Part shown: in pieces, positions 27,123 through 48,419 of the stretch | Layout of the letters: the number at the start of each line of letters is the position of its first letter | Position numbering within the stretch: position 1 is the stretch's first letter | Assembly (NCBI GenBank): GCA_963764725.1 | Contig: CAVXTM010000015.1 | Coordinates: 288,001 to 352,000 of the forward strand | Direction of reading: 5' to 3' | Origin: an uncultured Gammaproteobacteria bacterium | GTDB lineage: Bacteria; Pseudomonadota; Gammaproteobacteria; JACCXJ01 | DNA: 64,000 nt | Position numbers and translations under genes: made by a program | The notes under the pieces: generated by a model | What the model was told of the DNA's origin: nothing | Database searches by the model: none | The model's input: only the letters and a program-made list of their open reading frames with translations

Positions 27123-27167
27123 GGCTTTCTGGAGCGTTATAACCTCATCTATTTGTTGAACACTACA

Positions 27168-29553: not shown

Positions 29554-29723
29554 AGGTCTCGGAGTTCAACCAGCGGTCGTGGGTTATGGCACTTACATGT
29601 CCGGCATGGCTTCTGACGCCCCTTGCCTTCGGCACACAGGTCGAACAGGCCCAATGCCGTCGCTTGCATAATACGGGGTGGAGTGGGTAGTACGCAACGG
29701 ACCGCGACGCGTGCCAGGGCCTC

Positions 29724-30626
29724 TCACCGACACCAGTGGGTTAAATCCCGGCCAAGTAGTTCACTCAGGCGTTGCACCTCGGGGTGGAATTTACGCTGAA
29801 GTTCGACCCTCAACTCTGGATCCATCGCAGGACGTGTCACATATTTGGTGTTAAGTTGTCCCAGTCTTTGAAGAACTTCGCGACGCAAAGGTCGGGGCAC
29901 CGTTGCCCTGACGAGCGATCGAGCCAAAGGGTGGCTCTTCAAGGTCCACAACAAGCTTCTGAAGGTCTTGCTGCGCACCTGTTTGTTTGGATTCACTACC
30001 TCAAACCTGGGTTGGAAGCGGTCGTCTATATTCAAAAAGCACAGCGTCTCTTGATAGACAGATGCCGCATCTTGCTTAAGGTCGTCATAAATGATGATGT
30101 GTACTTTCTCCCGCCCAAACCTGTCAAAATAGCGCTTGACCTGATCTGTATACTTGCCAACCTCCATATAAAAGAAGCCACTGATTATCAACTCATTCTC
30201 AGGAAGCCTGGCTCCTGGTTTTCTTATACTCTCATCCTCAAGGGCCGCCCTAAAATCCTCGATCTCTTCTCCTCCAGTGCGTAGCATATGACTATGCAGA
30301 GAGTAAAGCATATCTACTGGATTTCTGAGCATAATAATTATATCTGCGGCACCAGCGAAATCCCGAATCTCGTAAGCCGCGCGCTTTGAATACAAATAGA
30401 ACACTGATTTCTCGCCTACTCGCCTCCGGAACTTCGCCTCGGGAGTATCAAAGTGCGCCAGGTATTGCTCAATGGTGCACCTGGGATGTGTAAACAGCAG
30501 GTCATTACCGAAGAAATCCATCTCCTTCTCTGGCAAACAAATATCCGGATGCTGACTCAAGTAATACCGCATGGCTGTTGTTCCACACTTTGGCGCTCCG
30601 ACAATGAAAAAGTCTGGCTTTCTCAC
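29724..30626 (-). CDS. PAPS-dependent sulfotransferase
   Basis: PDFFIVGAPKCGTT (5'-PSB) and LRNPVDMLYS (3'-PB). Confidence 0.9.
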   Translation of the reverse strand: MRKPDFFIVGAPKCGTTAMRYYLSQHPDICLPEKEMDFFGNDLLFTHPRCTIEQYLAHFDTPEAKFRRRVGEKSVFYLYSKRAAYEIRDFAGAADIIIMLRNPVDMLYSLHSHMLRTGGEEIEDFRAALEDESIRKPGARLPENELIISGFFYMEVGKYTDQVKRYFDRFGREKVHIIIYDDLKQDAASVYQETLCFLNIDDRFQPRFEVVNPNKQVRSKTFRSLLWTLKSHPLARSLVRATVPRPLRREVLQRLGQLNTKYVTRPAMDPELRVELQRKFHPEVQRLSELLGRDLTHWCR

Positions 30627-31950
30627 GGGGTACTCCTCAAACCGAAGCTCCCCGCAGCCGTGGTGTAAATGCCAAGCCGCTGGTAAACCCATACCGCAAG
30701 CAGGATATTCCACGTTGCCACGCTGATCGCGGTTGCAATGGCCGCCCCTTCAATCCCCCATACCGGGATCAGTAGGGCGTTCAGTGCTACATTCATCACA
30801 GCGGCTATGCCCACACCTGTAGCGGTGTCGCGCTCATGACCGGTCATGACCAGGAGCAACCCTACAGAGCCCATCCCAGCGTTAATGATTTGCGCTGCAC
30901 TGAGAATAGCGAGTGCCGTTGCTCCAGAGACAAAGTCGGCGCCAAACACCGTCAGCAGGATCCACCGGCTGAAAATGATCATGCTCAGGGCCACAGGCAG
31001 AGAACCTAACAGAACAACACGGGCGCTAATGGTGACAATGCGCTGTAAGCGCTGTAGCTCACCGGCAGTGTAGAGGCTGGAAACGACTGGCCCTAGCGCC
31101 ATATTGGCGGCGGCCAAGACAAACGAGACGAGATCAGCCCCCGCGTAGCCACTTGATAGACGCCGGCAGCTTCGGCGCCTTGCATGGCTCCCACCATAAG
31201 GATGGCCGTCTCATGGTTAATCGCCGCCAGGCTGCCCAGCGCCAGCAGAGGAAGGGCGCTTTTTATCCACGCGCGGGTTTCATAGGTTGGCGCCGTCTCC
31301 TTAACCGCCTGCGGCAACCGCTTGACTAACCACACCGCGCCCACCAAAAAGGCAGCGGCACTAGCGGCCACCTGCATTCCCATAGCCCAGACAGCGGTAA
31401 ACTGGCCGGCGCCCGACAGCAAATAACCGCCCCCAGCTAACAGGATGAATAGGCCAGGTTTGATCAGCGCTTCAGGCAGTTGTCCCAGCAGCACATAGCC
31501 GAGTCCGCGCAGGGTTGCCGTGCGCAGGGCATTCAGGGCCATTAAGGGCAACAGAACCAGGGCCAGCCAGAAAGTCGCAAGCCCTTCGGGCGGGAGGCGG
31601 TCGGCCAGCACCCAGCCGATGACCGCCGCCAGCAGTACCAGTCCCCATGAGATGAGCAGGACCGCTTGATTTGCCTTTAGTAACAGGCCACGCATCAAGG
31701 ACCAAACCGAGCGGCTCTGGTAGGCCGCGATGTAACGAATGATCAAGCTCGGCAGGCCCAGCTTGGCCGGTACGCTTAACAAGTTGACCAGTGCCATGGC
31801 GTAGGCATAGGTACCGTAGTCCGCCGCCCCCAACAGGCGCGCTAAAACGATACTGAGGATGAAACCCAATGCGGTCGCGACAAGTCTCAGGGCAAAACTT
31901 CCTCCGGCTCCGCGAATCAGATAGTCCCGGAGGCTGTGTCTTGCACCCAT
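30623..31950 (-). CDS. Wzx-type polysaccharide flippase, frameshift near 31130
   Basis: LARLLGAADYGTY, AAGVYQVA, NALLIPVWGIEGAA; multi-TM. Confidence 0.85.
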
Positions 31951-32008
31951 ACTAGCCGCTAGAAGCGGACCCCGATTTTTGGACAAAGATCGTACCGCCC
32001 TGATTCGA

Positions 32009-33302
32009 CTATGCAGCAGACAAGTACAGCACCGCATCGCCGCTGAACGGCGCCGTGAACGACTTGCTGCTTCCTCCCGTCACGGAACCGGCCGTCACGG
32101 TCGAGCCCGTACCCGGATTGAACCACTCGACCTTGAGTGATCCCGTGCTCGACGATAAGTTCATCGTCACGGACCCGCCGCTCGGCAGATACACGAGGTA
32201 CTCGGCTCCCGTTGCGCTCGGGTTGGCCAAGCAGTAGCCGGTCGAGGCGAGGCCGTTCTTCGGCGTCATCTTGGCGAGGTTCATCTTCCGGGCGTAGGTG
32301 AGCGTGTGCCCCATTGCCTTGCGGGCACCCTCGTGCGTCGGATCGACATCCAGCGGGTCCATGTAAATGGGATTGAGCCCGCGCGCGAAGCTCTTCCAAA
32401 CCCACTTCCGATCGCCTCCGACGCCCCAGAGGTGGTCCGTGTCGGTGAGGAGGATCTTGGAGCCGTTGGCCGCAGGCGGATTCGATCTATAGTCGCTTCC
32501 GACCTCGTGCCTCGGCGAGATCCAGTCCGCCTTGCTGCTGAACAGCGCCGCGTTCGTGCCGGTGCTCCACTGAAACGTCATCCCGACCGGATGCTGTTTG
32601 GGCTTTCCGGCCTGATGAGCTTTGACGACATCGATCATGTGATACTGAAAGCTCGTCGAGTACGAGCCACGTCTCGTTTGCGATCTCGTAGAGGACGTTG
32701 GGTAGGTCGTTCACGGTGTCGACGACCTTCTTGACGTAGGCTCTCTGAATCGCGGTGACCTTCGGCAGGCTCAGTGTGTGCGTCTCGGTACCCTTACCGT
32801 CGTTGTTGGGATCGCCGTTGATGCCGTTGATGTTGTTGGCGGCGTGAAACGGGTGACCCTTCCAGCGCCAAGCGGAATCCGAGAACTGCATGCCATGGCC
32901 CTCGAACAGCATGATGGAAACGTAAATTCCCTTGTCTCTGGCCTGAATGACGCGCGACCTCAGTCGATCGAAGTACGATTGGTTGAGCTTACTGAGATCG
33001 AATTTGCGCTTGCCGTCGAGCGCAGTACCGGAGCCGGTGCGCGGCCATGGAAACTGGATCGTGTTTCTGATCGGCCCGCCGCGGTAGCTGTAGCGGGCAA
33101 GCTCCCAGGTCCACATGCGCATGAAGTTGTGATTTTTCGACACCAGGAAGCTCAGGTACCCGCTGTAGTTGAAGAGTGGGCCCGGAACGCGGTCTTTCAG
33201 GTTATACCAGATGTGCGATCCGGTCAGATAGATCGCTTTCCCGCTGCCGTCGGTGAAGTACCGCTTGTTGGTCGCGTGGACCTTGAGCGGCCCCGTCGCC
33301 AC
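32009..33302 (-). CDS. DUF4038/DUF6298-like glycoside-hydrolase domain with C-terminal putative collagen-binding domain, frameshift near 32660
   Basis: RYFTDGSGKAIYLTGSH, YFDRLRSRV, NVLYEIANE, DTDHLWG, VEWFNPGTG, APFSGDAVLYL. Confidence 0.75.
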
Positions 33303-34771
33303 GTTGGAGGCGGAAAGGGCGGCGTTCGCATGGTAGGTAAAGGTTCTATCCCGTTGAAATCCGGATTGGGCTAGGTAAAGAGCTGTCCGTGTTCAACATC
33401 GGCGTGTCGTTGGCGAGGATCGCGGGCGCCGGCTTGGTTAAGGTGGTGTTCTTTACTAACGTGTACGAATCATCGGCGGCGTTCGGTGCGACGTTGGCCG
33501 TGATTAGCACCTGGTCCATGTCGGTGAGATCGCCGTCGGTGATATCGAGCCGCAGGAGATACGCCTCGCCACATCAGGCGTGAAGCTCGGCGTGGCGGTC
33601 GTCGCGCCCGATAGATTGGCGTTGGTGATCGCGCTCGTCGGAGGCACGCTCACGAAGGTCCATAGGAAACTCAATGGGCTTGGGCCGTTGTCCGGATCGT
33701 TACTGGCCGTACCGTCGAGCGTCGTCTGATTGCCGAGTTGCACCACGATATCCGATCCGGCGTCGGCATTGGGCGCCACATTGGGCGGCGAGACGGTGAT
33801 TACGACCTCGTCCTGATTGATGTCGGCGCCGTCGTTGGCCTCGAGGCCGCACGCGAAACGCTCCGGGTAGATCCGGGGCGAAGGAGGCGAGCGCGGTGGC
33901 CGCCCCGGTGATGTTGGTATCCGTAGGCGCACCGCCTGGGCGGAACGGCCACGAAGAACCAGCGGAAGGCGAACGGCAAGCGCCGGCGTCGGGGTTGGCG
34001 CTGACCTGGCCGTTGAGGTCAACGATCGGGCCGATGACAGCGGACGGTCTGCACCCCGCGTCGGCGTTCGGCGGCACGTTGGGGGTTGCGGCCGTGACCG
34101 TCACCGTATCACGTTGGTCATCTGCCCGTCGGAAACCTCGATCGCTAACTGCGTAGGGGCCATCGCACATCGGTGGTGAAGCTAGGGGCAGCCGCGGCCG
34201 GATTCGCGAGCGACGCGTTGGTGACCGTGCTCGCGGGCGGCACCGAAAGGAACTGCCACGAGAAGGTCAGTGGATCGCCGTTTGGATCGGAGGAGCTGGA
34301 ACCTATCGAAGGTGACGAGAGCACCTGTCGCCACGTTGAAGTCCAGGCCGGCATCGGCCATCGGCAGCCCGTTTCCGGACTCCACCGTATTCGCACCCGG
34401 GCCGCAGTGGACGTCCGCCGTCGTTGTCCTGGACACTGTAGCGGAAGCGATCGCGACCGAGGAAACCCAGAGCCGGGCTGTACGTCACGGTGCCGTCCCG
34501 GTGGTTTGTTACGCGCTTACCATGCTTGGGTTTCGTGACGATTCTGACCGTGCTTGGGACGAAAGATGCGGCCATCGCGATCCCTATCGTTGGCGATGAC
34601 GTTGATGCGCACGCGCGTATCGAGCGCCGTGGTCGCGGCGTCGTTCTTCGCGATCGGAGCGTTAGCAACCGCATAGGTAGCCGCTGGTACAGAGAGAAAT
34701 AACATGATTCCCAACATCACCGTTGAACCTAAGGTCCTGGCGAAGTTGAGGCGTGCTGTAATACTAAGCAT
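33303..34771 (-). pseudogene. Exported Ig-like (Big_9/PKD) repeat protein, heavily frameshifted
   Basis: Signal peptide, NAPIAKNDAATT, PKHG..DGTVTYSP, repeated PNADAG..LDG..S.DPD..PL.F.W..VP motifs scattered across frames. Confidence 0.7.
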
Positions 34772-35112
34772 TAAGTACCCCCTTGATTACGTATATGTGC
34801 TTAGCGAAACGCCCAGCACACAGGAGGTACTGTTTGATCGCCTGGCAACCCTGCGGCCATGCCCCCCATTCATTAGGGGTTTAGGCCAGTAGCTTTGCGT
34901 CCCATCCTTTCAGATGGTTTGCCTTTTTCAGTGCTCTCGATTTCTTTGAGGGTGTTGATCCAGCTCGCGAGAACATCGCTCGAACGCCCGAATCTATCGA
35001 CCCTCGCTTCTCAGGCTTTAATAGCGGCTCCTGGGACGTTGTCCAATGACCACCATGCTGACACAGAGCAGCTGAACGTCATTCTGAAACGACTCTACCC
35101 AGCCCGACTTCC

Positions 35113-35530
35113 ACGCGCCGTGCAAAAGCATGGTCTTTCAGTGGGTGTGATTCCAACCAGGTAACTATAGCTATAGTCAGTAGTAATAAAATCAGTCGTG
35201 AAGGTAACCAAGCGGCTGAAACCTGCGGTGTAGAGGGTCACTATGGGTGATCTGGCAGGTATGCAAGCCGTAACGTGAGTGAACGCCGAATAAGTCTCGA
35301 AAAGGGTGATTCGGAAGCCGACGCAGCCGCCAATTCTGGGAAGACTGCTATTTCTGTGGAAGAGATAGAGGTAGGCATCCATGGATTCCGCCGGGGTATT
35401 GGCGACAGCATCCATACAAGGGGAAGTGCAACACGGGAAGCCCATCGTGTGGTTCGGGCGTGAGAAGCAAATCGACCGCCCGTGGCCCGTGCAACCCCAG
35501 TCCGTAGCCCCAACCGCGGCCCGCGAGCAC
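35113..35530 (+). mobile_element. Group II intron 5' remnant (domain I region), no RT ORF
   Basis: GCGCCGTG..CAGTGGGTG..; GGTAACCAAGCGGCTGAAACC; GCAAGCCGTAACGTGAGTGAACGCCGAATAAGTCTCG..GGAAGCCGAC; GGATTCCGCCGGGGTA..GGCGACAGCAT..AACACGGGAAGCCC resemble bacterial group II intron 5' sequences (recognised by eye). Confidence 0.6.
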
Positions 35531-35649
35531 CCCACGATACCGGTCAGGAATCAGTTGCAAAATGGCATTGGATTTTTTATCCTGCCTAATGTGAGGGGTT
35601 AAGCGGCCGTTGCCGAGGCGACTCAGGGAGTACCACTATTTCGAATGGG

Positions 35650-36131: not shown

Positions 36132-36420
36132 ATGCCGACCTTTCTGATTATCAGCGCCCAGAAGGCCGGCACGACCTCGATGTACGAGTACCTGTGGCAG
36201 GACCCCGACATTTTCATGAGTGCGGTGAAGGAGCCCTGGCACTTCGCCTCGCACGCGAGGAGGCGATGGACGGAACCAGGCGATGATTACATCCGCGCCG
36301 GCTACTTGGCCCTGGCCCGCGTGGAGGATTACGAAGCGCTGTTTGAGGGAGGAACGCACGCGCTGGCACGCGGGGAAGCCAGCACGATTTACCTGCTGAC
36401 CGAAGGTTGCGCGGAGCGCA
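36132..36420 (+). pseudogene. Sulfotransferase N-terminal remnant
   Basis: MPTFLIISAQKAGTTS...KEPWHF...GEASTIY, then breaks off. Confidence 0.75.
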
Positions 36421-36500
36421 TGGTTCGCAACGGTCATCTGCCTGGCGGACGATACAGACCGGTGTGGGGGCTGTGGAAGTGAAGATGCCGCGGGTTCGAC
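36420..36500 (+). mobile_element. IS256-family transposase scar
   Basis: VRNGHLP / RTIQTGVGAVEVKMPRVR matches the IS256 N-terminal motif. Confidence 0.6.
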
Positions 36501-36584
36501 TATTTCTCGAGGCCCAGGCTTTACTACCTTCTTTCAGACTCATCTTTGAATTAGAAAATACTCAGTCCACCTCGTTCTGGAATT

Positions 36585-39500
36585 GTGAAGAAGAACAAAC
36601 GCTTTCTTAGTCCAACTATTGAGTCTTCCACGATAGTTGAACTCCTTCGCTGGAGAGCGCTTTTACAGCCCGAACAGCGAGCCTATACTTTTCTCGTTGA
36701 TGGGAAGGTAGAAGGACCAAACCTGACTTATGCAGAACTCGATTGTAAAGCCCGAAGCATTGGTGCCTTGCTCCAACAGCATAGAGCGCCAGGGGAGCGG
36801 GCTCTGCTGCTCTACCCCCAAGGTGTGGAGGTCATAGCTGCTTTTTGCGGTTGCCTTTACGGTGGGGCGATCGCCATCCCTGTGCCTCCACCCGAAGCGA
36901 GTAGAGTAAAGCGAACCCTGCCTAGACTTCAGGCGATCATCAAGGATGCCCAAGCCTCGTTTGTCCTGACTACGTCCACAATTCTATCCCTAGTTGAGGA
37001 ATTTCGAGAGCAGATTCCTGAATTCCAGGCTATGCGCTGGATAGACACCGAGCAGGTTGGTCTGGAACTGGCGGAGGAATGGCAAGATCCAGCAGTTAGC
37101 AGCGATATGCTGGCTTACCTCCAATACACCTCAGGTTCCACCGCTACCCCCAAGGGTGTGATGATCAGCCATGGAAACGTAATGTTCCACTCTGCGTACC
37201 TTAAAAAGGCATGCGGGTACACACCCGATAGCATAACTGTGACGTGGATGCCTTACTTCCATGATTATGGACTGGTTGAAGGACTGATCCAACCTCTATA
37301 CAACGGTACCCCGTGCTTTGCGATGTCGCCCCTTGCATTTATCAAGCGACCGATTCATTGGCTCCAGGCAATTTCCCGATATAAGGGAACCCATAGCCAA
37401 GCCCCGAACTTTGCCTACGAGCACTGCGTTCGCAAGATCTCACCAGAACAACGCTCTACCTTAGACCTTAGCTGTTGGCGTGCAGCAGGCAACGCCGCAG
37501 AGCCAATCAACCCGAAGGTAATGGAGAGTTTCTTCGCAGCCTTTGAACCGTGTGGTTTCCGCTGGAACGCCTTTTGTCCTGCTTATGGACTTGCCGAGGA
37601 CACTCTGTTAGTTTCTTCGAGTCAGCAAACTGCGGCGCCCGTTTTGTGCAAGCTCGATGCGGCAGCGCTGGAAAAAAATCGGATTGTTGACGCCAACAAA
37701 CACGACAGCGTTGCGCGGACGGTAGTGGGATGTGGTCGCCTGGTTTGCGATACAAAGGTAGCTATCGTTGATCCAGAAACGTTGATCCAATGTGCGCCCG
37801 ATGAAGTCGGTGAGATTTGGGTGTCAGATCCTAGTGTCGCTCAAGGCTATTGGAATCGACTCGAAGAGACAGAATGCACCTTTCGGGCACACTTGGCAGA
37901 CACAGGCGAAGGTCCCTTTCTCCGCACCGGCGATCTGGGATTCATGAAAGATGGTGAGCTATTTATCACTGGTCGCATCAAAGATTTGATCATTATTAGA
38001 GGCACTAATCATTATCCTCAAGACATTGAGTGGACAGTGCAGCGGAGTCACCCAGCACTAAGACATGAACATGGAGCAGCGTTTTCGGTTGTAGATGGCG
38101 AGGAGCGACTGGTAGTTGCTCAGGAAATCGAGCGTCGTTACCCGAATTTGAACTTCGATGAGGTATTTGAGACAGTTTGCCAGACGGTGGCGGACCATCA
38201 CGAGTTGGCAGTTTATGCCATATTGCTGCTTAAAACTGGCAGCATTCTTAAGACTTCCAGTGGGAAGATCCAGCGCAAGGCTTGCCGGGCCAGCTTTCTG
38301 GATGGAAGCTTAGATGTTATAGGGACTTGGACTGCAAACAAGGTTACAAAACCAGGAGGGGGTACTGTGCCAATGCCACCTGCACCAGACATTCGCACCC
38401 ATGGTGCTACAGATATCTTAACCGATTCATCTGTCAGGATTACGGATGTCACCGCAGAACAGGGCATAAGCAGAGAGCGTGCTGACGCTATCATTGACTG
38501 GCTTCGCACTTATGCAAATGAGCGGCTCAACTCCGGACTGATTGATAAGCGCCGTTGTATACCCCCCTACGTGGTACTCGACTTTGGAAATCGCGGCATA
38601 CTCGGGATGCAAATCCCTGAAAAATACGGAGGGACTGCCCTAAGAAACCTCGATGCTATGCGCGTTGTCGAACAGCTCGCAGCCATAGATCTGACACTTG
38701 CTACATTCGTTGTCAACAATGATTTTCTTGGGATTCGCCCGATCCAGCGCTATGCTACCGAAACCGCACGCGATGAGCTTCTCCCTATCCTTGCCAAAGG
38801 TCGCGAGCTTGCGGCATTCGCACTGACAGAGCCAGACGCTGGTTCAAATCCCCAAGCGATCTCAGCAACAGGAGTCGCGGACGCTACAGGTGGCTGGCGA
38901 TTACACGGTACTAAGGTTTGGAGTGGCTCTGCTGCATGGGCAGGTGTGATCAATGTCTTTGTCAAACTCGTTGATGCCAACAACAAATCAAGCGGCATCG
39001 CCGGTTTTGCTGTGCGTCAGGGAACAGCTGGCTTGCGTCCGGGACCTGAATCGCTGACGATGGGGATGCGTGGCATGGTGCAAAACTTCATCCACCTCAA
39101 CGACGTTCGAGTAGGTTCGGTCCATGTGCTAGGCGAACCCAGAGCTGGGATGGAAGCTGCCCAAGATGCGATGCTGTATACCCGTCTGGCCATTGGAGCA
39201 ATGTGTGTCGGCGGGATGAAGCGCTGCGCGCAGTTGATGCTCCGCTATGCAACGCGTCGTGACATCGGTACAGGACGTCTGCTGGACAACCCAGTCACAC
39301 TGACACGCTTGAGTGACCTCACAGCAGCGATCGCGGCATTTGAAACGCTTGTTGCTCGGATTGCCGAGTTACTTGACGATGGCTATTTGGTTCCGGCGGA
39401 GGCGTATGTCGCCTGCAAGACAGCCGGTCCGGAATTGCTTTGGAAGGCTGCTGACAATCTCGTTCAGCTTTTGGGAGGTCGCGGGTATATAGAGACGAAT

Positions 39501-40064
39501 ATTGCTGCCCAAATCCTGCGCGATGCTAGAGTATTTCGGATTTTTGAAGGTCCCACCGAGACCTTAAATATGTTCCTTGGCTCACGCCTGCTCCACCGAA
39601 GCGCCGAACTGCATCAGTTCCTGTGCAATGGTCTCGGCGCTCCTGCCGTCTCAGACAGTTTGAGAGATGCTGCGGAACGAATTCAGGCACGGTGGTGGTC
39701 AGAGCCAACTGCTCCTTCCTCAGACGGTCCTTCTGCCCTACGTTGGGCTTCCATGCTCATCGGTGAAGTTGCTACATCCGCAATTCTGCTAGCAGCAGTG
39801 CAGGGAGGGGTTAAGCGCACGCCATCAAACCAGCTGCGTCGTGCTGTTGAATGGGCACGATGCCAGTTCGACCAGACCCTTGAGCGAGCCCTTACTGGCA
39901 CACCCGTTGAACCTGTGCTGCTTAACGCCAATGAAGCTACGGCTCTTATATCCAGCTATGCTGAAACAATCGGAGATCTCGAACAAACCCTCGCGGGTGA
40001 AGATCGTGCATTAGACGAGCTACTACGGCGCGAAGAAACAACGCGTGAAGGAAGAGGAACATGA
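36585..40064 (+). CDS. Fatty acyl-AMP ligase fused to acyl-CoA/ACP dehydrogenase
   Basis: AYLQYTSGSTATPKGV, YGLAE, FLRTGDLGF, KTSSGKIQR; then AFALTEPDAGS, GTKVWS, LLGGRGY, RIFEGPTE. Confidence 0.92.
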   Translation: MKKNKRFLSPTIESSTIVELLRWRALLQPEQRAYTFLVDGKVEGPNLTYAELDCKARSIGALLQQHRAPGERALLLYPQGVEVIAAFCGCLYGGAIAIPVPPPEASRVKRTLPRLQAIIKDAQASFVLTTSTILSLVEEFREQIPEFQAMRWIDTEQVGLELAEEWQDPAVSSDMLAYLQYTSGSTATPKGVMISHGNVMFHSAYLKKACGYTPDSITVTWMPYFHDYGLVEGLIQPLYNGTPCFAMSPLAFIKRPIHWLQAISRYKGTHSQAPNFAYEHCVRKISPEQRSTLDLSCWRAAGNAAEPINPKVMESFFAAFEPCGFRWNAFCPAYGLAEDTLLVSSSQQTAAPVLCKLDAAALEKNRIVDANKHDSVARTVVGCGRLVCDTKVAIVDPETLIQCAPDEVGEIWVSDPSVAQGYWNRLEETECTFRAHLADTGEGPFLRTGDLGFMKDGELFITGRIKDLIIIRGTNHYPQDIEWTVQRSHPALRHEHGAAFSVVDGEERLVVAQEIERRYPNLNFDEVFETVCQTVADHHELAVYAILLLKTGSILKTSSGKIQRKACRASFLDGSLDVIGTWTANKVTKPGGGTVPMPPAPDIRTHGATDILTDSSVRITDVTAEQGISRERADAIIDWLRTYANERLNSGLIDKRRCIPPYVVLDFGNRGILGMQIPEKYGGTALRNLDAMRVVEQLAAIDLTLATFVVNNDFLGIRPIQRYATETARDELLPILAKGRELAAFALTEPDAGSNPQAISATGVADATGGWRLHGTKVWSGSAAWAGVINVFVKLVDANNKSSGIAGFAVRQGTAGLRPGPESLTMGMRGMVQNFIHLNDVRVGSVHVLGEPRAGMEAAQDAMLYTRLAIGAMCVGGMKRCAQLMLRYATRRDIGTGRLLDNPVTLTRLSDLTAAIAAFETLVARIAELLDDGYLVPAEAYVACKTAGPELLWKAADNLVQLLGGRGYIETNIAAQILRDARVFRIFEGPTETLNMFLGSRLLHRSAELHQFLCNGLGAPAVSDSLRDAAERIQARWWSEPTAPSSDGPSALRWASMLIGEVATSAILLAAVQGGVKRTPSNQLRRAVEWARCQFDQTLERALTGTPVEPVLLNANEATALISSYAETIGDLEQTLAGEDRALDELLRREETTREGRGT

Positions 40065-40531
40065 GAGAACCAAGAGACAAGGAGGCAAGGGGACAAGGGG
40101 AATCTTCATCAATCCTCTCCCCATCCTCCCATCCTCCCTTTTCTAGCCATACCGTCGAGTCCATTGAAACCTGGCTAGCAAGATGGGTTTCTGATGAACT
40201 AAAAATAGTGCTCACTTCGATTGACACGCGCAAGTCCTTTTTCTTTTACGGTCTCGATTCAGTGACGGCTATCGGGCTTTCATCTGACCTCGAGGTTTGG
40301 CTTGGACGCCAGCTTTCTCCCGCTCTGGCGTGGAATTATCCTACCATCGAGACCCTTGCCCAGCATTTAGCTCAGGAAAGCGATGTTAGGGAGGACGAGT
40401 ATAAAGATAGCCAGGCCAATGTAATCGACAAAATCAACCAGGGAAAGGCGGAACAATCATTGGCTAACCTCTCCGATGAAGAAGTGGATTCCTTGCTAAG
40501 TCAGATGTTAGCGGAGGAAGGTGATTCATGA
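40061..40531 (+). CDS. Acyl carrier protein with C-terminal docking helix
   Basis: GLDSV phosphopantetheine site, WNYPTIETLA; LSDEEVDSLL tail. Confidence 0.9.
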   Translation: MREPRDKEARGQGESSSILSPSSHPPFSSHTVESIETWLARWVSDELKIVLTSIDTRKSFFFYGLDSVTAIGLSSDLEVWLGRQLSPALAWNYPTIETLAQHLAQESDVREDEYKDSQANVIDKINQGKAEQSLANLSDEEVDSLLSQMLAEEGDS

Positions 40532-41850
40532 GTGACATCTCTAAACGTACCGCTGATCTTTCGCCGGAGGAAAAGCGCGCACTTCTAGCGCAACTGCTGC
40601 AGAAAAAGGCTAGCCAGTCGAGCGAGGCCCTTGCGGAGAATGTAGCCAAGGAGAGCGATAGTTCTTCGCTGCCAGCGACGCCAGCTCAGGCAAGACTTGA
40701 GCGGGAAAGAACTGTCGCACCAGTTGATGGGCCACAAGCAAAGGGTCCGGACGGCAAACAGCCTCTCCCCACGCCGGTTAAAGGCATGCAATTCAGCCTG
40801 CTTTACTTCTCCAGCAACGAGTCTAAGTTTATAGATAACAAGTATCAACTGTTGCTGGAAGGAGCAAAGTTCGCCGATCAACATGGCTTTACTGCCGTTT
40901 GGACACCAGAACGTCATTTTCATGCCTTTGGTGGCATCTACCCCAATCCGTCCGTCTTATGCGCCGCGCTCGCCATGGTGACCGAGCGAATCCGCTTACG
41001 AGCTGGCAGTGTTGTCATGCCTCTACAGAATCCAATTCGAGTTGCTGAAGAATGGTCTGTGGTAGATAACTTGTCACAAGGCAGAGTAGACATTGCCTTT
41101 GCTAGAGGTTGGAATGTGCAGGACTTTGTCCTTTGGCCGCAGCACTACGCCAACAGTAGAGAAGTCCTGTTTTCAGGGGTTAAAACCGTGCAAAAGCTTT
41201 GGCGGGGTGAGGCAATCTTAGTACCCGATGGCGTTGGGAAAGAGACCGAGATCAAAATTTACCCCTTGCCCAAGCAGCCCGAATTGCCTATTTGGATCAC
41301 CAGTAGCGGTAGTAAAGAAACGTTTATTGAGGCGGGTGCCTTTGGATACCACGTCTTGACTGCCCTTCTTTTCCAAGAGATTGAAGAATTGACCGAAAAA
41401 TTAGCCCTCTATCGCGACTCCAGGGCGAAACATGGGTACGACCCCCAAACTGGTCATGTCACTCTAATGCTGCATACATTTGTCGGCGAAGACATAGATG
41501 TTGTTCGCGACAAGGTGCGAGGGCCGTTTACAGAATATCTCAAAACTTCTGTTGACTTGTGGCGTCGTGGCTCTAAGAGTGTTGGCGAGTTGAGCGAAAG
41601 AGAGCGGGAAAAACTTGTGGCTTACGCATTTGAGCGTTACTCTCGTACTAACGCCTTATTTGGGACACCAAGCACATGCTTAGAAATGGTCAATCGACTA
41701 AAGGAAATTGGTGTCGATGAAATTGCTTGTTTAATCGACTTTGGAGTCGACGTAGATTCGGTTCTGGCAAGTCTTTACTCCCTAAATATGCTTAGAGAGC
41801 GGTTTAATAGGGAGTTTCAGATGTTAGCAGCGGAGGAAGTTAACTCATGA
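40528..41850 (+). CDS. MupA/Atu3671-type luciferase-like FMN monooxygenase with N-terminal docking peptide
   Basis: FSLLYFS, AVWTPERHFHAFGG.YPNPSV, RVAEEWSVVDNLS.GRV, GVDEIACLIDFG. Confidence 0.9.
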   Translation: MSDISKRTADLSPEEKRALLAQLLQKKASQSSEALAENVAKESDSSSLPATPAQARLERERTVAPVDGPQAKGPDGKQPLPTPVKGMQFSLLYFSSNESKFIDNKYQLLLEGAKFADQHGFTAVWTPERHFHAFGGIYPNPSVLCAALAMVTERIRLRAGSVVMPLQNPIRVAEEWSVVDNLSQGRVDIAFARGWNVQDFVLWPQHYANSREVLFSGVKTVQKLWRGEAILVPDGVGKETEIKIYPLPKQPELPIWITSSGSKETFIEAGAFGYHVLTALLFQEIEELTEKLALYRDSRAKHGYDPQTGHVTLMLHTFVGEDIDVVRDKVRGPFTEYLKTSVDLWRRGSKSVGELSEREREKLVAYAFERYSRTNALFGTPSTCLEMVNRLKEIGVDEIACLIDFGVDVDSVLASLYSLNMLRERFNREFQMLAAEEVNS

Positions 41851-44800
41851 GTGCTGTCTCCAAACTTACAACTGAGCTGTCACCGGAGGAAAAGCGTGCG
41901 CTTCTAGCGCAGCTACTGCAGAAAAAGGCTAGCCAGTCCAAATCTTTGCTTCCTCTCTCCCTCGGTCAGCAGGCACTGTGGTTTTTGTACACGCTCGCAC
42001 CCCAAAGCTGGGCTTACAATGTGTTGTTTGCAGCCCGAATTCGCTCACATGTAGACGTTCCGGCCTTGCGACGCGCGTTTGGGGCGCTGATTGATCGCCA
42101 TCCTTCCCTCAGAACCACTTATACTTTGCGCGACGGTAGACCGGTGCAGCAAGTCCACGAGCACACTCAAGTCCACTTTGAGGAGACAGACGCTTCAGCT
42201 TGGAGCCAGACAGCGTTGAATAACCGCCTGGTTGAGGAAGCACGCCGTCCCTTCAATTTGGAACGGGGACCCTTGCTGCGGGTGAACTTGTTCACTCAAT
42301 CAGCCAAAGAACACATCCTTTTGCTGACGATGCACCACATTGCAGTCGATCTCTGGTCCCTTACCGTGTTGTTGGACGAGCTCCGCGTGCTGTACCCTGC
42401 CCAAAGAGCTGGCACACAGGCACCTCTACCTCCTCTCGCCTGGCAATACACGGACTTCGTTCGTTGGCAGACCGAAATGCTAGCAAGCGCAGAAGGAGAA
42501 CGGCTTTGGACCTATTGGCAGAAACAGCTTGCTGGTGAATTGCCTGTGCTGAATCTGCCTACTGATCGGCCTCGACCGCCGATTCAGACGTATCGCGGTG
42601 CCTCGCACGCCTTCAAGCTGAGCGAGGAATTGACGCGGCAGATCAAGGCGCTGACGAAGACCGAGGAAGTAACTCTTTATATAACGCTCCTGGCGGCCTT
42701 CGAGGTGTTGCTTTATCGCTATACCGGTCAAGAAGACATTCTGGTAGGCTCTCCCGCTACTGGTCGGAGTCGGCGTGAATTTTCAGGGATAGTGGGTGAC
42801 TTCATCAACCCAGTTGTCTTGCGAGCGGATCTTTCCGGCAATCCCACATTCAAGACGTTTCTCACTCAGGTGCGCTATACGGTGCTAAATGCTCTCAATC
42901 ATCAGGACTACCCTTTCCCACTCATAATCGAGCGACTCCGTCTAACTCCAGATCCCAGTCGTTCGCCGCTCTTCGGGGTCATGCTCATCTTACGGAAGCT
43001 ACACCGATTCGAGGAACTATCAGATTTCATCGAGCCGAACCAAATCCAGGCCAAGATGGATTTTGGGGGGCTTGAGATAGAACCTTTTGATCAGGCACAG
43101 CAGGAGGGTCAGTTTGATCTGACCTTAGCGATGATCGAGACCGGCGGCTCACTTTTTGGCGTTTTGAAGTACAACCCAGACTTGTTTGAGGCTGCAACTA
43201 TCGCCCGGATGACCGGACATTTTCAGACCTTGCTCGAAGGCGTCGTCACCAACCCAGACCAGCCGATTTCACGCTTGCCACTTTTGAGAGCAGCAGACCG
43301 GCATCAGTTACTCGTGGAGTGGAACGACACCCAGGTAGATTACCCCAAGGATGCGCGCATCCATCGGCTATTTGAGGCACAGGTAGAGCGAACACCTGAG
43401 GCTATTGCCGTCGTCTTTGAAGACCAGCAGCTAAGCTATCGAGACCTGAATCGCCGCGCAAATCAACTCGCGCATCACTTGATCGGCCGGGGCGTCGGCC
43501 CCGACATTCTGGTTGGCATCTTTGTCGAGCGCTCGCTTGACATGATCGTCGGTCTATTAGGCATTTTGAAGGCGGGGGGCGCCTATGTGCCGCTCGATCC
43601 GGACTACCCCATTGAGCGGCTCGGCTTCATGGTGAGAGATGCGGCGCTCTCGGTGGTGGTGACTCGGCAAAGGCTCGAGTCTACCCGCGAATGGCGCAAA
43701 ACTCGTCCGACTGGACAGCGATCGAAGCGCGATCGACGCGCAACCCGATCACAACCCTGTCGATCGGGCTGATGCCGACTCGCTCGCCTATGTAATCTAC
43801 ACCTCGGGCTCGAACGGGTCAACCGAAGGGCGTGATGATTGAGCATCGCTCCGTGGCCAACTATCTTGCCGCGGCAAGCCAACTGTACGGGGTGCAAGCG
43901 AGTGACCGTGTTCTACAGTTCGCATCGATCAGTTTCGATGTCAGCGTCAGGGAAATCTTCGGCAGCTTGACCAGTGGCGCTGCGCTCATCTTGTGCGCCG
44001 ATCGGCGACAGGACAGCGCGCAGTTCTTTTCCGATTGCCAGGACCGGCCATTACGATGGTTAGCCTGCCCACGGCATACTGGCACAGACTTGCCAGCGCT
44101 TTGGACGAGGAAGGTTGGCGGATTCCGCCATCGTTGCGCCTGGTCAGCGCCGGTGGGGCGAAAATGTTGGCTGATCGCCTGGCGATTTGGCGCCGTGCCG
44201 CTCCGCAACTGTCGCCTTATCAATAGCTACGGCCCCACTGAAACCACGGTATCTGCCGCAGCGTCGGAATCCCGGGCAAGCAGAAGCGCTCGTGGATGTC
44301 CCGATTGGCCGCCCGATCGCCAACACGCAAACCTACATCCTCGACGCTCACTTGAACCCGGTGCCGACAGGGGTTCCCGGCGAGCTGCACATCGGCGGCA
44401 GTGGTTTGGCGCGCGGATACCTGGGTCGTGCCTGACTTAACCGCTGAGAAGTTCATCGGCAATCCGTTCAGCGACGATCCAAAAGAACGGCTGTATAAGA
44501 CCGGCGATCTCGCGCGCTATCTCTCTGATGGCAATATCGCGTTTTTGGGACGCGTCGATCATCAAGTCAAGATCAGGGGTTTTCGCATCGAGCCGGGCGA
44601 GATCGAAGCGGTGTTAATTCACCATTCCAGCGTGTGTGAAGCGGTCGTGATCGCGCGAGAAGATATCCCTGGCGACAAGCGCCTGGTCGCCTACGTCATC
44701 GCTTCAACGGACGACGACGCGAGCCTGATCACGTCGCTGCGCAGTCACCTTAAGTCAACTGCTTCCCGACTACATGCTACCTTCGGCTTTCGTCATCCTC

Positions 44801-46005
44801 GACAAACTACCGGTCACTCCGAATGGAAAGCTCGATCGGAAAGCTTTGCCGGCGCCGGAATATCAATCGCAAGAGGTTTTTGTCGCGCCGCGCACGCCGA
44901 TCGAGCAACAACTCGCGGCGATCTTCGCGGGGGTATTGAAAGCTCGATCGGGTTGGCATCCACGACAACTTCTTCGATCTCGGCGGGCATTCGTTTCTGG
45001 TGTTGCGCGTGTTGGCCGAAATCGAAAAGACTTGCGGCCGGCGTTTGTCGGTCGCGACGCTGTTCCAGGCACCGACCGTGGAACAGATCGGCCGAATCCT
45101 GGCGGCGGGAGATTCTCTCGATGACTCGGATGTGATCGTGCCGCTCAACCCCCACGGCACGACCCCGCCGCTATTCAGTGTATGGCTGGGCATCGCAACT
45201 ATGCTGCGCGAGTTGTGCCGCTGCCTCGGGCCTGATCAGCGTCTGTACGGAATCAGCTCTCACTGGGACCCGAGGCAGATGCGCATGACGCGCATTGAAG
45301 AAATGGCCGCTTTTAATCTGACTCACCTGCGCAAGGTACAGCCGCACGGACCTTATTATTTGAGCAGTGACTGCGTGTCGACGCTGGTCGCGCTGGAAAT
45401 GGCGCAGCAGTTGCTCGCCCAAGGCGAAGAGATCGCGGCGCTGGTGTTGATCGATCCCCCACCGCCGAAGACGCCAATGGCACGCGATCGTTCTCGCAAC
45501 CGTGTCGAAAGGCATTTACGCAGCCTGGTCAATAAAAATGTCATCGAGCAGCTCGCCTATGTGTGGGCGCGTGTGTGGTACGGGTTGAACGTCCTCTGTC
45601 AGGAGAATCGCGCTTCCTATTTTCCTGGCGTGCAGACTGCCTTTGTCGCGCGGTCTTTTGTCGCGCTATACTATTGATTCGCATCGGCGCGCGAAAAAGA
45701 ACTATGTGCCGAGAGCCTATGCCGGCAAGATCTGGTTTATCTGGGCGGCCGACGATATGGACGAGGTGCGGCGCCGCGAAATTCAAAACGCCTGGTCCCG
45801 GCTTGCCGCGCAAGCAACCCATCGCCTGGTCCCAGGCATGCATGTCGAACTGTTTCAAGATCCTTATGTCGGGCCGCTGGCCGAACAAATGAAGATCTGC
45901 CTGGCCGAGGCGCGAAGGGCGCCGCACACCTCCCCCGGGGCCCAAGACAATGCCACTGGAAGCCTAGCTCACAAACCCAGCATTCAACGAGCGTCCTTGG
46001 CGTGA
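41847..46005 (+). CDS. NRPS module C-A-PCP-TE; A-PCP-TE part broken by multiple frameshifts
   Basis: C domain HHIAVD; A domain [43 protein letters not shown]; [11 protein letters not shown]; [10 protein letters not shown]...VPGMH. Confidence 0.85.
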
Positions 46006-46688
46006 GGCTTCGCATTGCGGCGGATCGAGTCGACCTCTGGCGCGCGTCGCTTCCCGCTTTGCCCGCTCTGCAAGCCCAGCTCTCGCCCGATGAATTGGAC
46101 CGCGCGGCGCGTTTTCATTTCGAGAAAGACAGCAGGCATTTCATCGCGGCTCGCGGCTGGCTGCGAACAGTGCTCGCACGCTACCTCGACACGTCGCCCG
46201 CCGATCTCCGCTTCGATTATGGCGTGCGCGGCAAACCCGTGCTTTCCACAGGCTGTGATCTCCGCTTCAACCTTTCGCACTCCCATGATCTCGTCTTGCT
46301 TGCCGTGACCAAAAAACGCGAGCTCGGCATCGATGTCGAATTCATCAAAGCATCAATAGGTCCGGAAATCGCCGAGCGTTTCTTTTCTGCCGCCGAAATC
46401 GCCGAACTCCGTGCTCTGCCTCGGGAACAACAGCGCGCGGCATTCTTTGCGGGCTGGACGCGCAAGGAATCCTATATCAAGGCAACCGGGACCGGATTGT
46501 TCGCCCCGCTCGATTGCTTCACCGTTTCGCTCGCACCGAACGAGTCGCGCGTGTCGCTGCGCGTCCACGACGACGAGCGCGAGGCCGCGCGTTGGACCTT
46601 ATGCAGCTTGCATCTCGACGAAGGCTACGCCGGGGCGCTAGCCGTCGAAGGCAGCGATTGGCGATTGCGATGCTTCGACTGGTCGTAG
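46002..46688 (+). CDS. Sfp-type 4'-phosphopantetheinyl transferase
   Basis: GKP, FNLSHS, GIDVE, WTRKESYIKATGTG. Confidence 0.92.
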   Translation: MRLRIAADRVDLWRASLPALPALQAQLSPDELDRAARFHFEKDSRHFIAARGWLRTVLARYLDTSPADLRFDYGVRGKPVLSTGCDLRFNLSHSHDLVLLAVTKKRELGIDVEFIKASIGPEIAERFFSAAEIAELRALPREQQRAAFFAGWTRKESYIKATGTGLFAPLDCFTVSLAPNESRVSLRVHDDEREAARWTLCSLHLDEGYAGALAVEGSDWRLRCFDWS

Positions 46689-46891
46689 CTGTCGGCCTAT
46701 ATGATGCCGACGGTTGTGCTCGATCGACTGCCGCTTACGCCAAACAGTCACCGAATCCGGCCGTAAGGCATTACGCAACCTCCGGTTAAGAGTATAGAAC
46801 GATCATTCTCACGTTGAGTCGATTGAAAGAAGGAAAGGATTCGATACCACCGGCTCTACCAGCCTTAATAGCTACGACTGAAGCTGGTGCT

Positions 46892-48364
46892 TTATGACAA
46901 TGACTCTTTTCGTGGCCCACCGAAAAGGAGCGCGATGGCCTCTGTCATTAGCGCCCTTTGGAAGACGAAGGATAATACTATATATCCAACTAGTCCAACT
47001 ATCGCGGCCAGCGCACAAGCCACGATGTTGCTATCTATCGCAACGAAACGGATCACCAAAGACATTAGGACACCCATACAGAGCGCTAAGACAATAGGTT
47101 TTGCTGTGACTGTGGCGTATTCGGTAAAGCACGGACCGATGAGTTTACGTATAAGGACTCTGTAGTGCATGAAAGCAAGAAAAAACTGGAGTAAGACGAG
47201 CGAGTAACAAACATTAACCAAATCGCCCGTTTTGGCTGCGGCAAAGATAGTCGGCGGAATCAACAAAGTTAATGACAAATTCCAGTAAAGCATCCAGTTT
47301 GCCTTTCCTTTTGCGACAATGAGACTGCCCGCAGCGCTTCCGAACGATCGAAATAATGAATAGAACGCGAGGATCTGGACTAGCGGTATTGCAGGACGCC
47401 ATTTGTCGCCCAAGAGTATGGGGACAAGCAGCGGCGCTAACGCTGCCATGCCAACAAGAACAGGCGCATTTACTGATGTAACAAGACCAATCATCTTCAT
47501 AAAGCCTCTTTTTAGCAACGCGTGGTCGTCTTGAACCAACGAAAACGCAGGGAAGGCCACGGTTGTCAAGATGCTGTTTATCCTTGTAAGAGGAGCGATC
47601 GCTAAACGAAAAGCCATGTTGTAATAGCCCAATGAAATGGGGCCTAAGAGATAGCCGACCAGTAACTGGTCGATGCGAAAGTTAATATAATTGACAAACC
47701 CCTCTCCTGTAAGATAAATACCAAAACTCAAATATCTCCTCCCCTTGTTCCAGTCAAAGTGCAGGAACGGTAACACTTTCTCCGCTTTCGCCCATGCAAT
47801 CCTCATAATGGTGATGGAAAACGTGGCGGTAAGGCTTCCCCAGACTAAAGCCCACACGCCAAATCCGTACAACGCTAGCGCCACAGAGACAGCCATGCCA
47901 ATCAGGGAACTAGCGATATTGAATTTTGTAAGGATATCAAAACGTAGCTTCTTAGTGATTTGTGCTGAAAACTGCGCTCCAATAGAGTAAATAACAAAGG
48001 AAAATGCGGCGACAGACACCAACGCTCTGAGCTGTGTCGCGCCGAACGCAGTGGCCACTAGGGGAGCGACAAGAACAAACAATATGAATATCGCAAAACC
48101 GGCAACGACGTTCATCCAATATAAAGTGGATAACTCTTCACGCGTTGGGGACACTCTTTGTATCAGAGCCCCCGATAGCCCTAGATTTGAGAAGGCACTC
48201 CCGAAACCCGTTATCACACTGACAATGGCCATTAGTCCATAAGCCTCTGCCCCGAGCAGACGAGCTAAGATAGCGAGCTCAATGAAATGTATCGCGGTAG
48301 TGCTTAGCGTGTTAATGCCGCTCCATCGGACACCATGAGTGACCTTGCGCTTGAAATCTGCCAT
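46892..48364 (-). CDS. WzxC/PST-family polysaccharide flippase
   Basis: GVRWS, LARLLG...GL, D.LLVG..LG...LGYY..A, LLGDKW; MADFKR start. Confidence 0.88.
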   Translation of the reverse strand: MADFKRKVTHGVRWSGINTLSTTAIHFIELAILARLLGAEAYGLMAIVSVITGFGSAFSNLGLSGALIQRVSPTREELSTLYWMNVVAGFAIFILFVLVAPLVATAFGATQLRALVSVAAFSFVIYSIGAQFSAQITKKLRFDILTKFNIASSLIGMAVSVALALYGFGVWALVWGSLTATFSITIMRIAWAKAEKVLPFLHFDWNKGRRYLSFGIYLTGEGFVNYINFRIDQLLVGYLLGPISLGYYNMAFRLAIAPLTRINSILTTVAFPAFSLVQDDHALLKRGFMKMIGLVTSVNAPVLVGMAALAPLLVPILLGDKWRPAIPLVQILAFYSLFRSFGSAAGSLIVAKGKANWMLYWNLSLTLLIPPTIFAAAKTGDLVNVCYSLVLLQFFLAFMHYRVLIRKLIGPCFTEYATVTAKPIVLALCMGVLMSLVIRFVAIDSNIVACALAAIVGLVGYIVLSFVFQRALMTEAIALLFGGPRKESLS

Positions 48365-48419
48365 AAAAACCTTTGTGTTTTGGCTCCAGAAAAGGCACAT
48401 CCTACCGTTTGGCTGATCC

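Follow-up and report, generated by a model that had tools for sequence, protein, structure and literature searches.

A candidate operon for a modified N-acyl amino acid beside the polysaccharide genes of an uncultured gammaproteobacterium

Introduction

Whether a short, fatty acid-primed assembly line lying among polysaccharide genes serves the cell envelope or makes a free metabolite, and whether it is still complete, are the questions raised by an operon of an uncultured Gammaproteobacteria bacterium. The stretch of DNA that was analysed (64,000 nt, positions 288,001-352,000 of contig CAVXTM010000015.1 in assembly GCA_963764725.1) is referred to as the window, and all coordinates are window-based. 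On its + strand lie genes for a fused fatty acyl-AMP ligase (FAAL) and acyl-CoA dehydrogenase (ACAD), an acyl carrier protein (ACP), a luciferase-like monooxygenase (LLM), a non-ribosomal peptide synthetase (NRPS) with condensation, adenylation, peptidyl carrier protein and thioesterase domains (C-A-PCP-TE) and a 4'-phosphopantetheinyl transferase (PPTase). Taken together, the observations make it fairly probable that the five genes form a conserved operon, a thiotemplate system for making a modified N-acyl amino acid, with the monooxygenase gene as an insertion, an A-domain core specific to the strain, frame breaks that are mostly consensus errors and a product probably bound for the envelope.

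Domains were assigned with Pfam and NCBIfam profiles, complemented by sequence matches to the Protein Data Bank (PDB). Reading frames were traced by three-frame translation and tblastn, using as queries four NRPS paralogues of the same genome and the orthologues of G003 and L108. G003 is an assembly and L108 a metagenome contig of the same species, while C7 and C12 are other contigs of the source assembly (G000).

Layout of the operon and its intact genes

The operon consists of the following features.

36585-40064, + strand: FAAL-ACAD fusion, 1159 aa, intact (Pfam AMP-binding, 6.9e-60, with Acyl-CoA_dh_N/M/1)
40061-40531, + strand: stand-alone ACP, 156 aa, N-terminus of low complexity, C-terminal tail acidic (PP-binding, 1.5e-12, residues 38-103)
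40528-41850, + strand: FMN-dependent LLM of the MupA/Atu3671 family, 440 aa, intact, with an 88-aa N-terminal extension (TIGR04020)
41847-43675, + strand: intact part of the NRPS gene, encoding an N-terminal peptide, the C domain and the A domain to motif A2 (Condensation, 1e-110; AMP-binding profile positions 1-114)
43676-44940, + strand: A-domain core of the NRPS, motifs A3-A10, strain-variable, with 8 frame changes (three-frame translation, tblastn)
44940-46005, + strand: PCP-TE end of the NRPS, nearly identical to the NRPS ends of contig C12 (97-100% per 100-column block to C12:~350500-349400)
46002-46688, + strand: HetI/Sfp-type PPTase, 228 aa, intact (ACPS, 4.4e-20, with AASDHPPT_N)

Neighbouring genes overlap by 4 bases, the ACP gene through ATGA on both sides, so that the coupled five-gene operon of the preliminary description holds as far as starts and stops are concerned; the frame of the C-A-PCP-TE gene, however, is broken nine times in this copy. 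The FAAL-ACAD, ACP, LLM and Sfp-type PPTase genes were confirmed as present and intact where they had been placed, with strong family scores.

The 15 top PDB matches of the FAAL half are all FAALs or FAAL domains (1e-167 to 4e-64; 7R7E-G at 1e-167, 3KXW, FadD32), whereas the acyl-CoA synthetase FadD13 matches at only 7e-21. The best NCBIfam families are likewise all FAAL models, each scoring below its equivalog cut-off, and the protein is assigned to the FAALs by its closeness to proven members over acyl-CoA synthetases. For the ACAD half the best PDB matches are ACAD9 and the very-long-chain enzyme VLCAD (approx. 1e-39), and the N-terminal, middle and C-terminal Pfam domains are all present. 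Residue E988, in a FEGPTE stretch, is invariant in 14 of 14 aligned FAAL-ACAD sequences and is presumably the catalytic base, as in the medium-chain enzyme MCAD; the domain would work on acyl-ACP instead of acyl-CoA. The ACP, free in the window, is fused to FAAL-ACAD in relatives of 70-76% identity. The PPTase has the two-domain ACPS fold of the Sfp/HetI type, an assignment at family level only, as its score with the HetI equivalog model (190.6 bits) is below the cut-off of 370; it is 100% identical in amino acid sequence to a second copy at C12:348735-349418.

The four C-A-PCP-TE domains, spread over several reading frames in the window, lie in one open reading frame (ORF) of 1364 aa in L108, which holds all four genes. 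Contig C139 of G003 carries the same operon at 94-97% nucleotide identity, and there the NRPS ORF runs without a stop for 1095 aa before the contig ends. Because the operon is intact in both, sequence comparison indicates that it is real and that its natural state is the intact one. Among the matches listed from 60 related genomes, unpublished ones included, a full-length match was found only in G003, at 97%. FAAL-ACAD is 97-98% identical to G003 and L108 (98% in L108), with dN/dS values of 0.17-0.24, and the monooxygenase gives 0.10-0.15; the two proteins are under purifying selection (0.10-0.24, the window/L108 pair included).

By analogy with characterized members of these families, the HetI/Sfp-type PPTase would prime the carriers, and the FAAL would adenylate a free long-chain fatty acid and load it on the stand-alone ACP. 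The fused VLCAD-like ACAD may then oxidize acyl-S-ACP to the 2-enoyl form, and the MupA/PuwE-type flavin monooxygenase may add oxygen to C2, or to a position beside it, while the chain is bound to the ACP. In the single NRPS module the chain would be coupled by the first C domain to the PCP-held amino acid, and the Cys-type TE would free the product either hydrolytically or by passing it to another nucleophile. This thiotemplate logic, in which a FAAL loads the ACP, ACAD and oxygenase modify the chain and the first C domain makes an N-acyl amino acid, had been proposed before and is upheld by the strength of the family assignments and by the intact lines of G003 and L108.

The monooxygenase as an insertion

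The monooxygenase covers model positions 1-341 of the 341 of TIGR04020 with 509 bits (cut-off, 244.45), which places it within the MupA/Atu3671 LLM family, and its closest solved relative is the oxygenase (Ox) domain of PuwE (PDB 6KET, E 3.6e-125 over the whole domain). Loci L112, L113 and L115 (69-73% amino acid identity to the window in the FAAL, 79-82% in the ACAD and 76-80% in the C domain) have the ACP fused to FAAL-ACAD and directly followed by the C domain, with no monooxygenase in between. In the window the ends of the gene are marked by a repeat.

40501-40619, + strand: junction repeat, copy 1, approx. 120 nt, at the ACP gene end and the monooxygenase gene start (83.6% identical to 41817-41938)
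41817-41938, + strand: junction repeat, copy 2, at the monooxygenase gene end and the NRPS gene start (repeat comparison)

The repeat is found in G003, L108 and L109 too. At the protein level, the monooxygenase and the NRPS start almost identically over approximately 31 residues, and the C-terminus of the monooxygenase copies the acidic tail of the ACP. Because of the loci without the gene, the junction repeat and the matching protein termini, the monooxygenase gene is best described, from sequence comparison, as a lineage-specific insertion between the ACP and NRPS genes, whose product carries copies of two neighbouring termini, the N-terminal one of the NRPS and the tail of the ACP. The copied termini may be docking elements that place the enzyme in line. 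Some oxygenase is present in every short line, namely the LLM in the window, a P450 in L117 and L123 (and also in L031) and a PhyH protein in L110.

The NRPS gene: domains and frame breaks

The intact part of the NRPS gene (41847-43675) is 90-96% identical at the nucleotide level to G003 and L108. The best solved relatives of its C domain, in PDB matches, are Txo2/Txo1 (approx. 1e-91) and TycC, of the elongation type, with the starter C domain of RzmA at 1e-12; its position directly after an acyl-ACP argues for a starter role.

In the A core (approx. 43610-44300) the three conspecific alleles are 39-78% identical within flanks of 90-96%, G003 and L108 sharing 40-53% of nucleotides. Because the cores of the three same-species assemblies differ completely, the amino acid is predicted to be specific to the strain. 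The motif-anchored specificity residues give unassigned codes for the window and G003, with residues of opposite charge, E and R, at position 239. The L108 code is one that we take to stand for Val, and the same anchors yield, on paralogues C12a and C4par, a code that we take to stand for Thr. The broken core was also examined as a possible mosaic of the G003, L108 or C12 alleles, and no segment of high identity was found.

Beyond the core, PCP-TE is 96-99% identical in amino acid sequence to the intact C12a copy. In the TE alignment the nucleophile position is a Cys in the window (motif S-x-C-x-S), C12a, L108 and L117, and a Ser in L110, L123 and a polyketide synthase (PKS) TE.

In the window the NRPS gene falls into the pieces 41847-43772, 43832-44440, 44401-45135, 45000-45677 and onward. 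Homology can be followed through frames 3>1>2>1>2>3>1>2>3>1, i.e. nine changes (near 43676, 43820, 44030, 44240, 44290, 44430, 44755, 44940 and 45601), eight of which are +1. The pieces are free of in-frame stops, and motifs A3-A10 and the PCP serine motif are all readable. Five of the changes are directly visible as one extra base with respect to a comparator, mostly outside homopolymers: at 43821 with respect to G003 and to contigs of three read runs; at 44429 and 44938/44942 with respect to C12b and G003; at 44762 with respect to a soil-metagenome contig that matches 44718-44899 with 1 mismatch in 181 letters; and an extra C at 45600 with respect to C12a and C12b, which breaks the TE frame.

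The sugar-gene neighbourhood

The operon is flanked by the following genes.

21860-32079, - strand: sugar-modification block with a nucleotidyl (NTP) transferase, a short-chain dehydrogenase/reductase (SDR), a family 2 glycosyltransferase (GT2), class IV and class III aminotransferases, a GT2, a sulfotransferase and a Wzx (Pfam)
30626-32079, - strand: second Wzx, the last gene of that list, split by a 1-base deletion at 31138 (Pfam; indels with respect to G003 and L108)
46892-48400, - strand: MOP/Wzx-family flippase, 502 aa, convergent with the operon (Polysacc_synt_3, 5.6e-79)

The GT2 genes (two) and aminotransferases (classes III and IV) reported earlier are there, with one Sulfotransfer_1 gene instead of several. 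The convergent flippase scores 405 bits with NF007773 (cut-off, 273) and is a Wzx/MOP family member; the end of the feature previously set at 48364 falls within it. Pfam and NCBIfam scans found no ABC or MFS exporter within 36-50 kb, in agreement with the reported absence of a peptide exporter.

The same sugar genes adjoin the operon in G003 and L108, and C139 of G003 also carries the core genes (T2SS, PFK) that flank them in the window. In L108 the class III aminotransferase and the Wzx are both intact. The stretch between sugar genes and operon differs in all three conspecific assemblies. Fears that the linkage might be an assembly artefact can therefore be set aside for the left-hand side, which is seen in three assemblies, and stay justified for the right-hand junction. 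There, 1.8 kb comprising PCP-TE and PPTase (44940-46700) are 99.5% identical to C12:~350500-348700, and in L108 the operon leads to a PPTase remnant followed by a DUF4910 gene, a flank that matches at 93% the one behind the C12 cluster in G000. Because of this repeat and of the different right flank of L108, the adjacency of the right-hand Wzx is not secure; of the arrangement 'between two Wzx flippases' it is the presence of both genes that stands, the upstream one being split. In G003, whose contigs are interrupted within the repeat, each of the two right flanks is found, and the junction of the PPTase end with Wzx is seen also in its contig C154. Both alternative flanks are polysaccharide loci, one with Wzx and an aldehyde dehydrogenase, the other with DUF4910, a BBP2_2 porin, Poly_export, a sugar C-methyltransferase, family 4 glycosyltransferases (GT4s) and an epimerase.

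As to the repeat itself, the PCP-TE unit exists in three copies (window 44940-46700, C12:348700-350500 and C12:363415-365085), two of which include the PPTase. The TE frame is unbroken only in C12a; both in C12b (an extra G) and in the window it is interrupted by a single extra base that is private to the copy. The second NRPS cluster, a larger one, occupies C12:334000-381000 of G000 (L203, L204) and comprises genes for an A-PCP protein and for two C-A-PCP(-TE) proteins, one gene of 3069 aa, and transposases. Behind it come PPTase, DUF4910, BBP2_2 porin, Poly_export, sugar C-methyltransferase, GT4s and epimerase, so that it, too, adjoins an exopolysaccharide (EPS) locus.

Other features of the island can be listed briefly. 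The GT2 genes at 23579-24645 and 28641-29705 are 85.6% identical copies, and because a 265-nt segment is duplicated as well (22449-22713, approx. 97% identical to 26869-27133) the sugar block is regarded as partly duplicated. A 308-aa protein with an H-R-D-T-W-Y motif (19761-20687, - strand) found no Pfam, NCBIfam or PDB relative, and a degenerate second HRDTWY copy lies at approx. 26850 (- strand) inside the duplicated segment. Just upstream of the FAAL-ACAD start, 36415-36564 holds an 85-nt unit with at least 8 copies elsewhere in the genome (approx. 86% identity) and an approx. 50-nt unit with 2 copies; these repeats, at which G003 diverges exactly from the window, may be small mobile elements. 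Fragments of a large adhesin-like gene lie in several frames (32009-35535, - strand; Collagen_bind_2, DUF6298, REJ/PKD, Big_9/Cadherin), with pieces that show 78-87% identity to C1, C11 and C12 loci.

FAAL-ACAD proteins in other loci

A protein search with FAAL-ACAD gave 4798 of 7999 scored candidates at E <= 0.001; the best 120 all carry both halves, most with a fused ACP and some with a TE, an AONS-like domain, a reductase or an LLM. A profile search of genome contigs with the FAAL-ACAD alignment found mainly FAAL-only loci, and the fusion only in L031, L032 and L066. Eleven non-conspecific FAAL-ACAD loci were examined (L031, L032, L066, L110, L111, L112, L113, L115, L117, L123 and L186); L188 (G042) and L189 (G025) were left out of the counts because of their architectures, ACAD-A-PCP and FAAL-ACP-C, respectively.

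Glycan genes lie beside all three of the short TE-ended lines in this set. L117 has, on one strand and with short gaps, a P450, FAAL-ACAD, ACP, C-A-PCP-TE, a GT2, an unknown gene and a Wzx-like gene. L123, also on one strand and with short gaps, has an epimerase, a deacetylase, a UDP-glucose dehydrogenase, a P450, FAAL-ACAD, ACP and C-PCP-TE, and in L110 GT4 and Wzz-kinase genes are divergent from FAAL-ACAD-ACP-TE. The NRPS of L123 (L123:8913-11513) is without an A domain.

The closest stand-alone relatives of the window FAAL, at 60-70% identity, are part of a cassette made up of a PPTase, the stand-alone FAAL, a stand-alone ACAD, an ACP, a membrane-bound O-acyltransferase (MBOAT) and a conserved unknown gene, seen at L146:8834-16991 and in other metagenome loci (L114, L118-L120, L122, L124, L126, L133, L141, L147, L150, L161, L170, L179 and L030). 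The MBOAT is present in 15 of the 15 cassette loci that are long enough, 10 more ending too early, and glycosyltransferase genes lie upstream of the cassette in L141, L146 and L147. A literature search for MBOAT together with ACP, ACAD and FAAL returned no bacterial paper that pairs MBOAT with FAAL, and literature searches found no description of the window's gene combination in a polysaccharide locus or of a route from FAAL-ACAD cassettes to acylated envelope polymers.

Comparison with known systems

The earlier statement that no characterized equivalent exists is too strong for the parts, since NvlI, the PuwE Ox domain with MupA, and ObiF1 each match a module. The operon is a new variant of a lipo-initiation chemistry that is already known. 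LipB of friulimicin and HxcO, the oxidase of the calcium-dependent antibiotic (CDA), are ACAD-type enzymes that oxidize the carrier-bound acyl chain. In lipo-initiation of the daptomycin type, a FAAL, a free ACP and the first C domain join a fatty acid to the first amino acid (PMC9113097). The steps are shared with those predicted for the window: adenylation of the fatty acid, loading on an ACP, oxidation while carrier-bound and coupling to the first amino acid by the first C domain. The window differs by having FAAL and ACAD in one protein, a single TE-ended module in place of a large peptide synthetase, an in-line flavin monooxygenase and sugar genes as neighbours.

The FAAL-ACAD fusion itself is found in NvlI, a FAAL-ACAD-ACP loading module encoded in the nostovalerolactone cluster of Nostoc punctiforme, for which fatty acid activation followed by oxidation by the adjacent ACAD was proposed (PMC9324945). 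In NvlI, however, the ACP is fused and the module feeds type I PKS modules, and its role is given there as a model rather than an assay result. A term search of two FAAL reviews gave no mention of an ACAD fusion (PMC11837247, PMC12820801).

The monooxygenase shares family TIGR04020 with MupA, which alpha-hydroxylates ACP-bound thioesters (PMC10952193), and with the PuwE Ox domain, to which the 2-hydroxyl of the puwainaphycin fatty acid was assigned (PMC4219810). Unlike them, it is stand-alone, has an 88-aa N-terminal extension and borrowed termini, and lies next to an ACAD.

As for the release end, ObiF1 of obafluorin biosynthesis is a single C-A-PCP-TE module that yields an N-acyl amino acid derivative through a TE using a Cys (PMC6668435). 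The window's C domain matches ObiF1 at 3.6e-14 in the PDB comparison. ObiF1 differs from the window in handling an aryl acid and a beta-hydroxy amino acid, in closing a beta-lactone and in its TE motif, G-x-C-x-G. The window enzyme instead would take a fatty acyl group, its motif is S-x-C-x-S, and its amino acid, if the presumed Val code of L108 is a guide, cannot lactonize.

Two further systems bear on surface display. In the Dlt system (DltA-DltC-DltB) an adenylating enzyme loads a carrier and the cargo ends on an extracytoplasmic polymer with the involvement of an MBOAT. The sister cassette has exactly this carrier-plus-MBOAT layout and looks like a Dlt-like route for an oxidized fatty acyl group, whereas in the window an NRPS module and a TE stand in the place of an MBOAT. 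In mycobacterial glycopeptidolipids, an NRPS that is primed by a FAAL makes a lipopeptide core, which carries sugars and is shown at the cell surface; the likeness, one of description, does not extend to their four modules, MmpL export and actinobacterial origin.

Weighing of the alternative readings

Two of the alternatives concern the DNA itself. That the NRPS is a true pseudogene, and that the operon is dying in a decaying island ridden with insertion sequences (IS) in which only the upstream genes are still readable, is a serious though clearly less probable reading. Besides the nine frame changes, it is favoured by several observations that weigh against an operon in good order: the class III aminotransferase (+1 at 27723) and the Wzx (-1 in the C run at 31138) are split here and intact in L108; the secretin GspD is split into ORFs 4858-5598 and 5520-7067 by a 7-base deletion with respect to G003 at 5526-5529; the epimerase/NAD_binding_4 gene upstream of the operon in G003 and L108 is absent; and adhesin-gene fragments and many IS copies, which flank the island, are present in the region. 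The source reads were not found among the read runs searched, none of which contained more than 9% of the sampled words, and the four runs compared with the window gave mostly short matches to conserved NRPS motifs from other organisms and left bins 43960-44247 uncovered. On the other hand, the nine breaks fall within 1.9 kb, and the 7.1 kb of operon before them have none. By taking into account also the bias towards +1 shifts, most of them outside homopolymers, the lack of nonsense codons, the undecayed motifs, the near-identical soil contig that lacks one of the extra bases and the insertion-only stretch described next, the breaks are probably for the most part local consensus errors rather than decay. 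FAAL-ACAD and the monooxygenase being under purifying selection in the window/L108 pair points the same way. The broken interval coincides with the strain-variable one, which is where a mixed-strain assembly would be weakest. The insertion-only stretch is a truncated IS copy at C7:39832-40884 of G000 (L190:5833-6885), with 59 inserted bases, most of them C or G, 0 deleted bases and 13 mismatches with respect to sisters that are 99.8-100% identical; it is probably an unpolished stretch of the assembly. Generally poor sequence in that part of C7 was considered and rejected, as the flanks of the IS copy are clean with respect to G003. The remaining T2SS operon shows no frame-breaking difference from G003 over 7.8 kb. 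The second alternative, that PCP-TE-PPTase and Wzx were brought together by a mis-join or a recent recombination across the 1.8-kb repeat, so that the two-Wzx arrangement is not native, seems unlikely. It would account for the near-identity with C12, the L108 flank and the two right flanks of G003, but the same PPTase-end-to-Wzx junction occurs in C154, the left-hand linkage is seen in three assemblies, and with a polysaccharide locus as either right flank the general conclusion stands.

The other alternatives concern the product. The preferred reading, in which it is probably destined for the cell envelope or a surface glycan and not a free antibiotic, is drawn from gene context, because the adjacency of the sugar genes is kept within the species, all three short lines have glycan genes, the sister cassette carries an MBOAT and the C12 cluster adjoins an EPS locus. 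This context raises the odds of an envelope destination for the acyl group, in what is a small sample: the short TE-ended group has three members only. The expectation that homologues would be linked to glycan genes was borne out for these three, while in the fetched DNA of the other eight of the 11 loci (L031, L032, L066, L111, L112, L113, L115 and L186) no glycan genes were found, it being understood that the contigs of L111 and L112 are too short to show how the line continues and that L031 has little flank. Five of the eight (L032, L066, L113, L115 and L186) feed PKS or larger PKS/NRPS lines. Within the proposed chemistry, the best solved relatives of the C domain are elongation-type and not starter domains, the specificity codes depend on the choice of anchors and on the meanings given to the codes, and an ACAD and a monooxygenase both aimed at C2 are chemically awkward together. 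That the line makes a lipo-amino acid which diffuses freely, as a biosurfactant, signal or antibiotic, and lies among the sugar genes by coincidence because both kinds of gene are in strain-variable islands, retains an appreciable, if lesser, probability. SwrW is a single-module C-A-PCP-TE enzyme that makes a free N-acyl amino acid derivative. So is ObiF1 (PMC6668435), and FAAL-ACAD-ACP modules start diffusible PKS/NRPS products in the five loci just named and, as proposed for this published family member, in NvlI (PMC9324945). The stretch between sugar genes and operon, moreover, differs in all three conspecific assemblies, and the adjoining MOP-family flippase could itself export the product. 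Such a free product fits less well with the same-strand runs that include a GT2 and a Wzx-like gene (L117) or UDP-sugar genes (L123) in unrelated contigs, with the MBOAT sister cassette and with the lack of an ABC or MFS exporter in the window region. It is, finally, very improbable that the monooxygenase hydroxylates the alpha-carbon of the amino acid residue, so that a primary fatty amide leaves the line. LLMs of this broad class do occur in NRPS settings, and the monooxygenase domains of MtaG and MelG hydroxylate the alpha-carbon of a residue with release of a primary amide. The closest solved relative, PuwE, is however assigned to the acyl chain, the gene lies between those of the ACP and the NRPS and copies their termini, and the presumed code of the L108 A domain reads Val, not Gly.

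Concluding remarks

The locus illustrates how a 'translationally coupled operon', as read by eye, concealed nine frame changes, and how a repeat puts one of its two flanking landmarks in doubt. The hypothesis that an acyl-amino acid would decorate a glycan is plausible and is somewhat strengthened by gene context, the one kind of evidence that bears on it. A fuller picture can be drawn, which as a whole is decidedly speculative: a strain-specific N-(2-oxygenated or 2-enoyl)acyl amino acid would be passed by the Cys-type TE to an amino sugar or a lipid-linked glycan, and a sulfated surface polysaccharide would in this way be decorated or anchored by lipid; swaps of the A core would resemble serotype variation; and the short TE and MBOAT lines would represent a widespread and so far undescribed class of envelope lipidation.

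Two changes of an assembly line have been caught between close relatives, namely the insertion of a tailoring enzyme with duplicated termini and the replacement of a whole A core within a species, and both are useful to those who engineer NRPSs. If the context signal is real, FAAL-ACAD cassettes would mark a route by which oxidized fatty acyl or lipo-amino acid groups are placed on envelope polymers.

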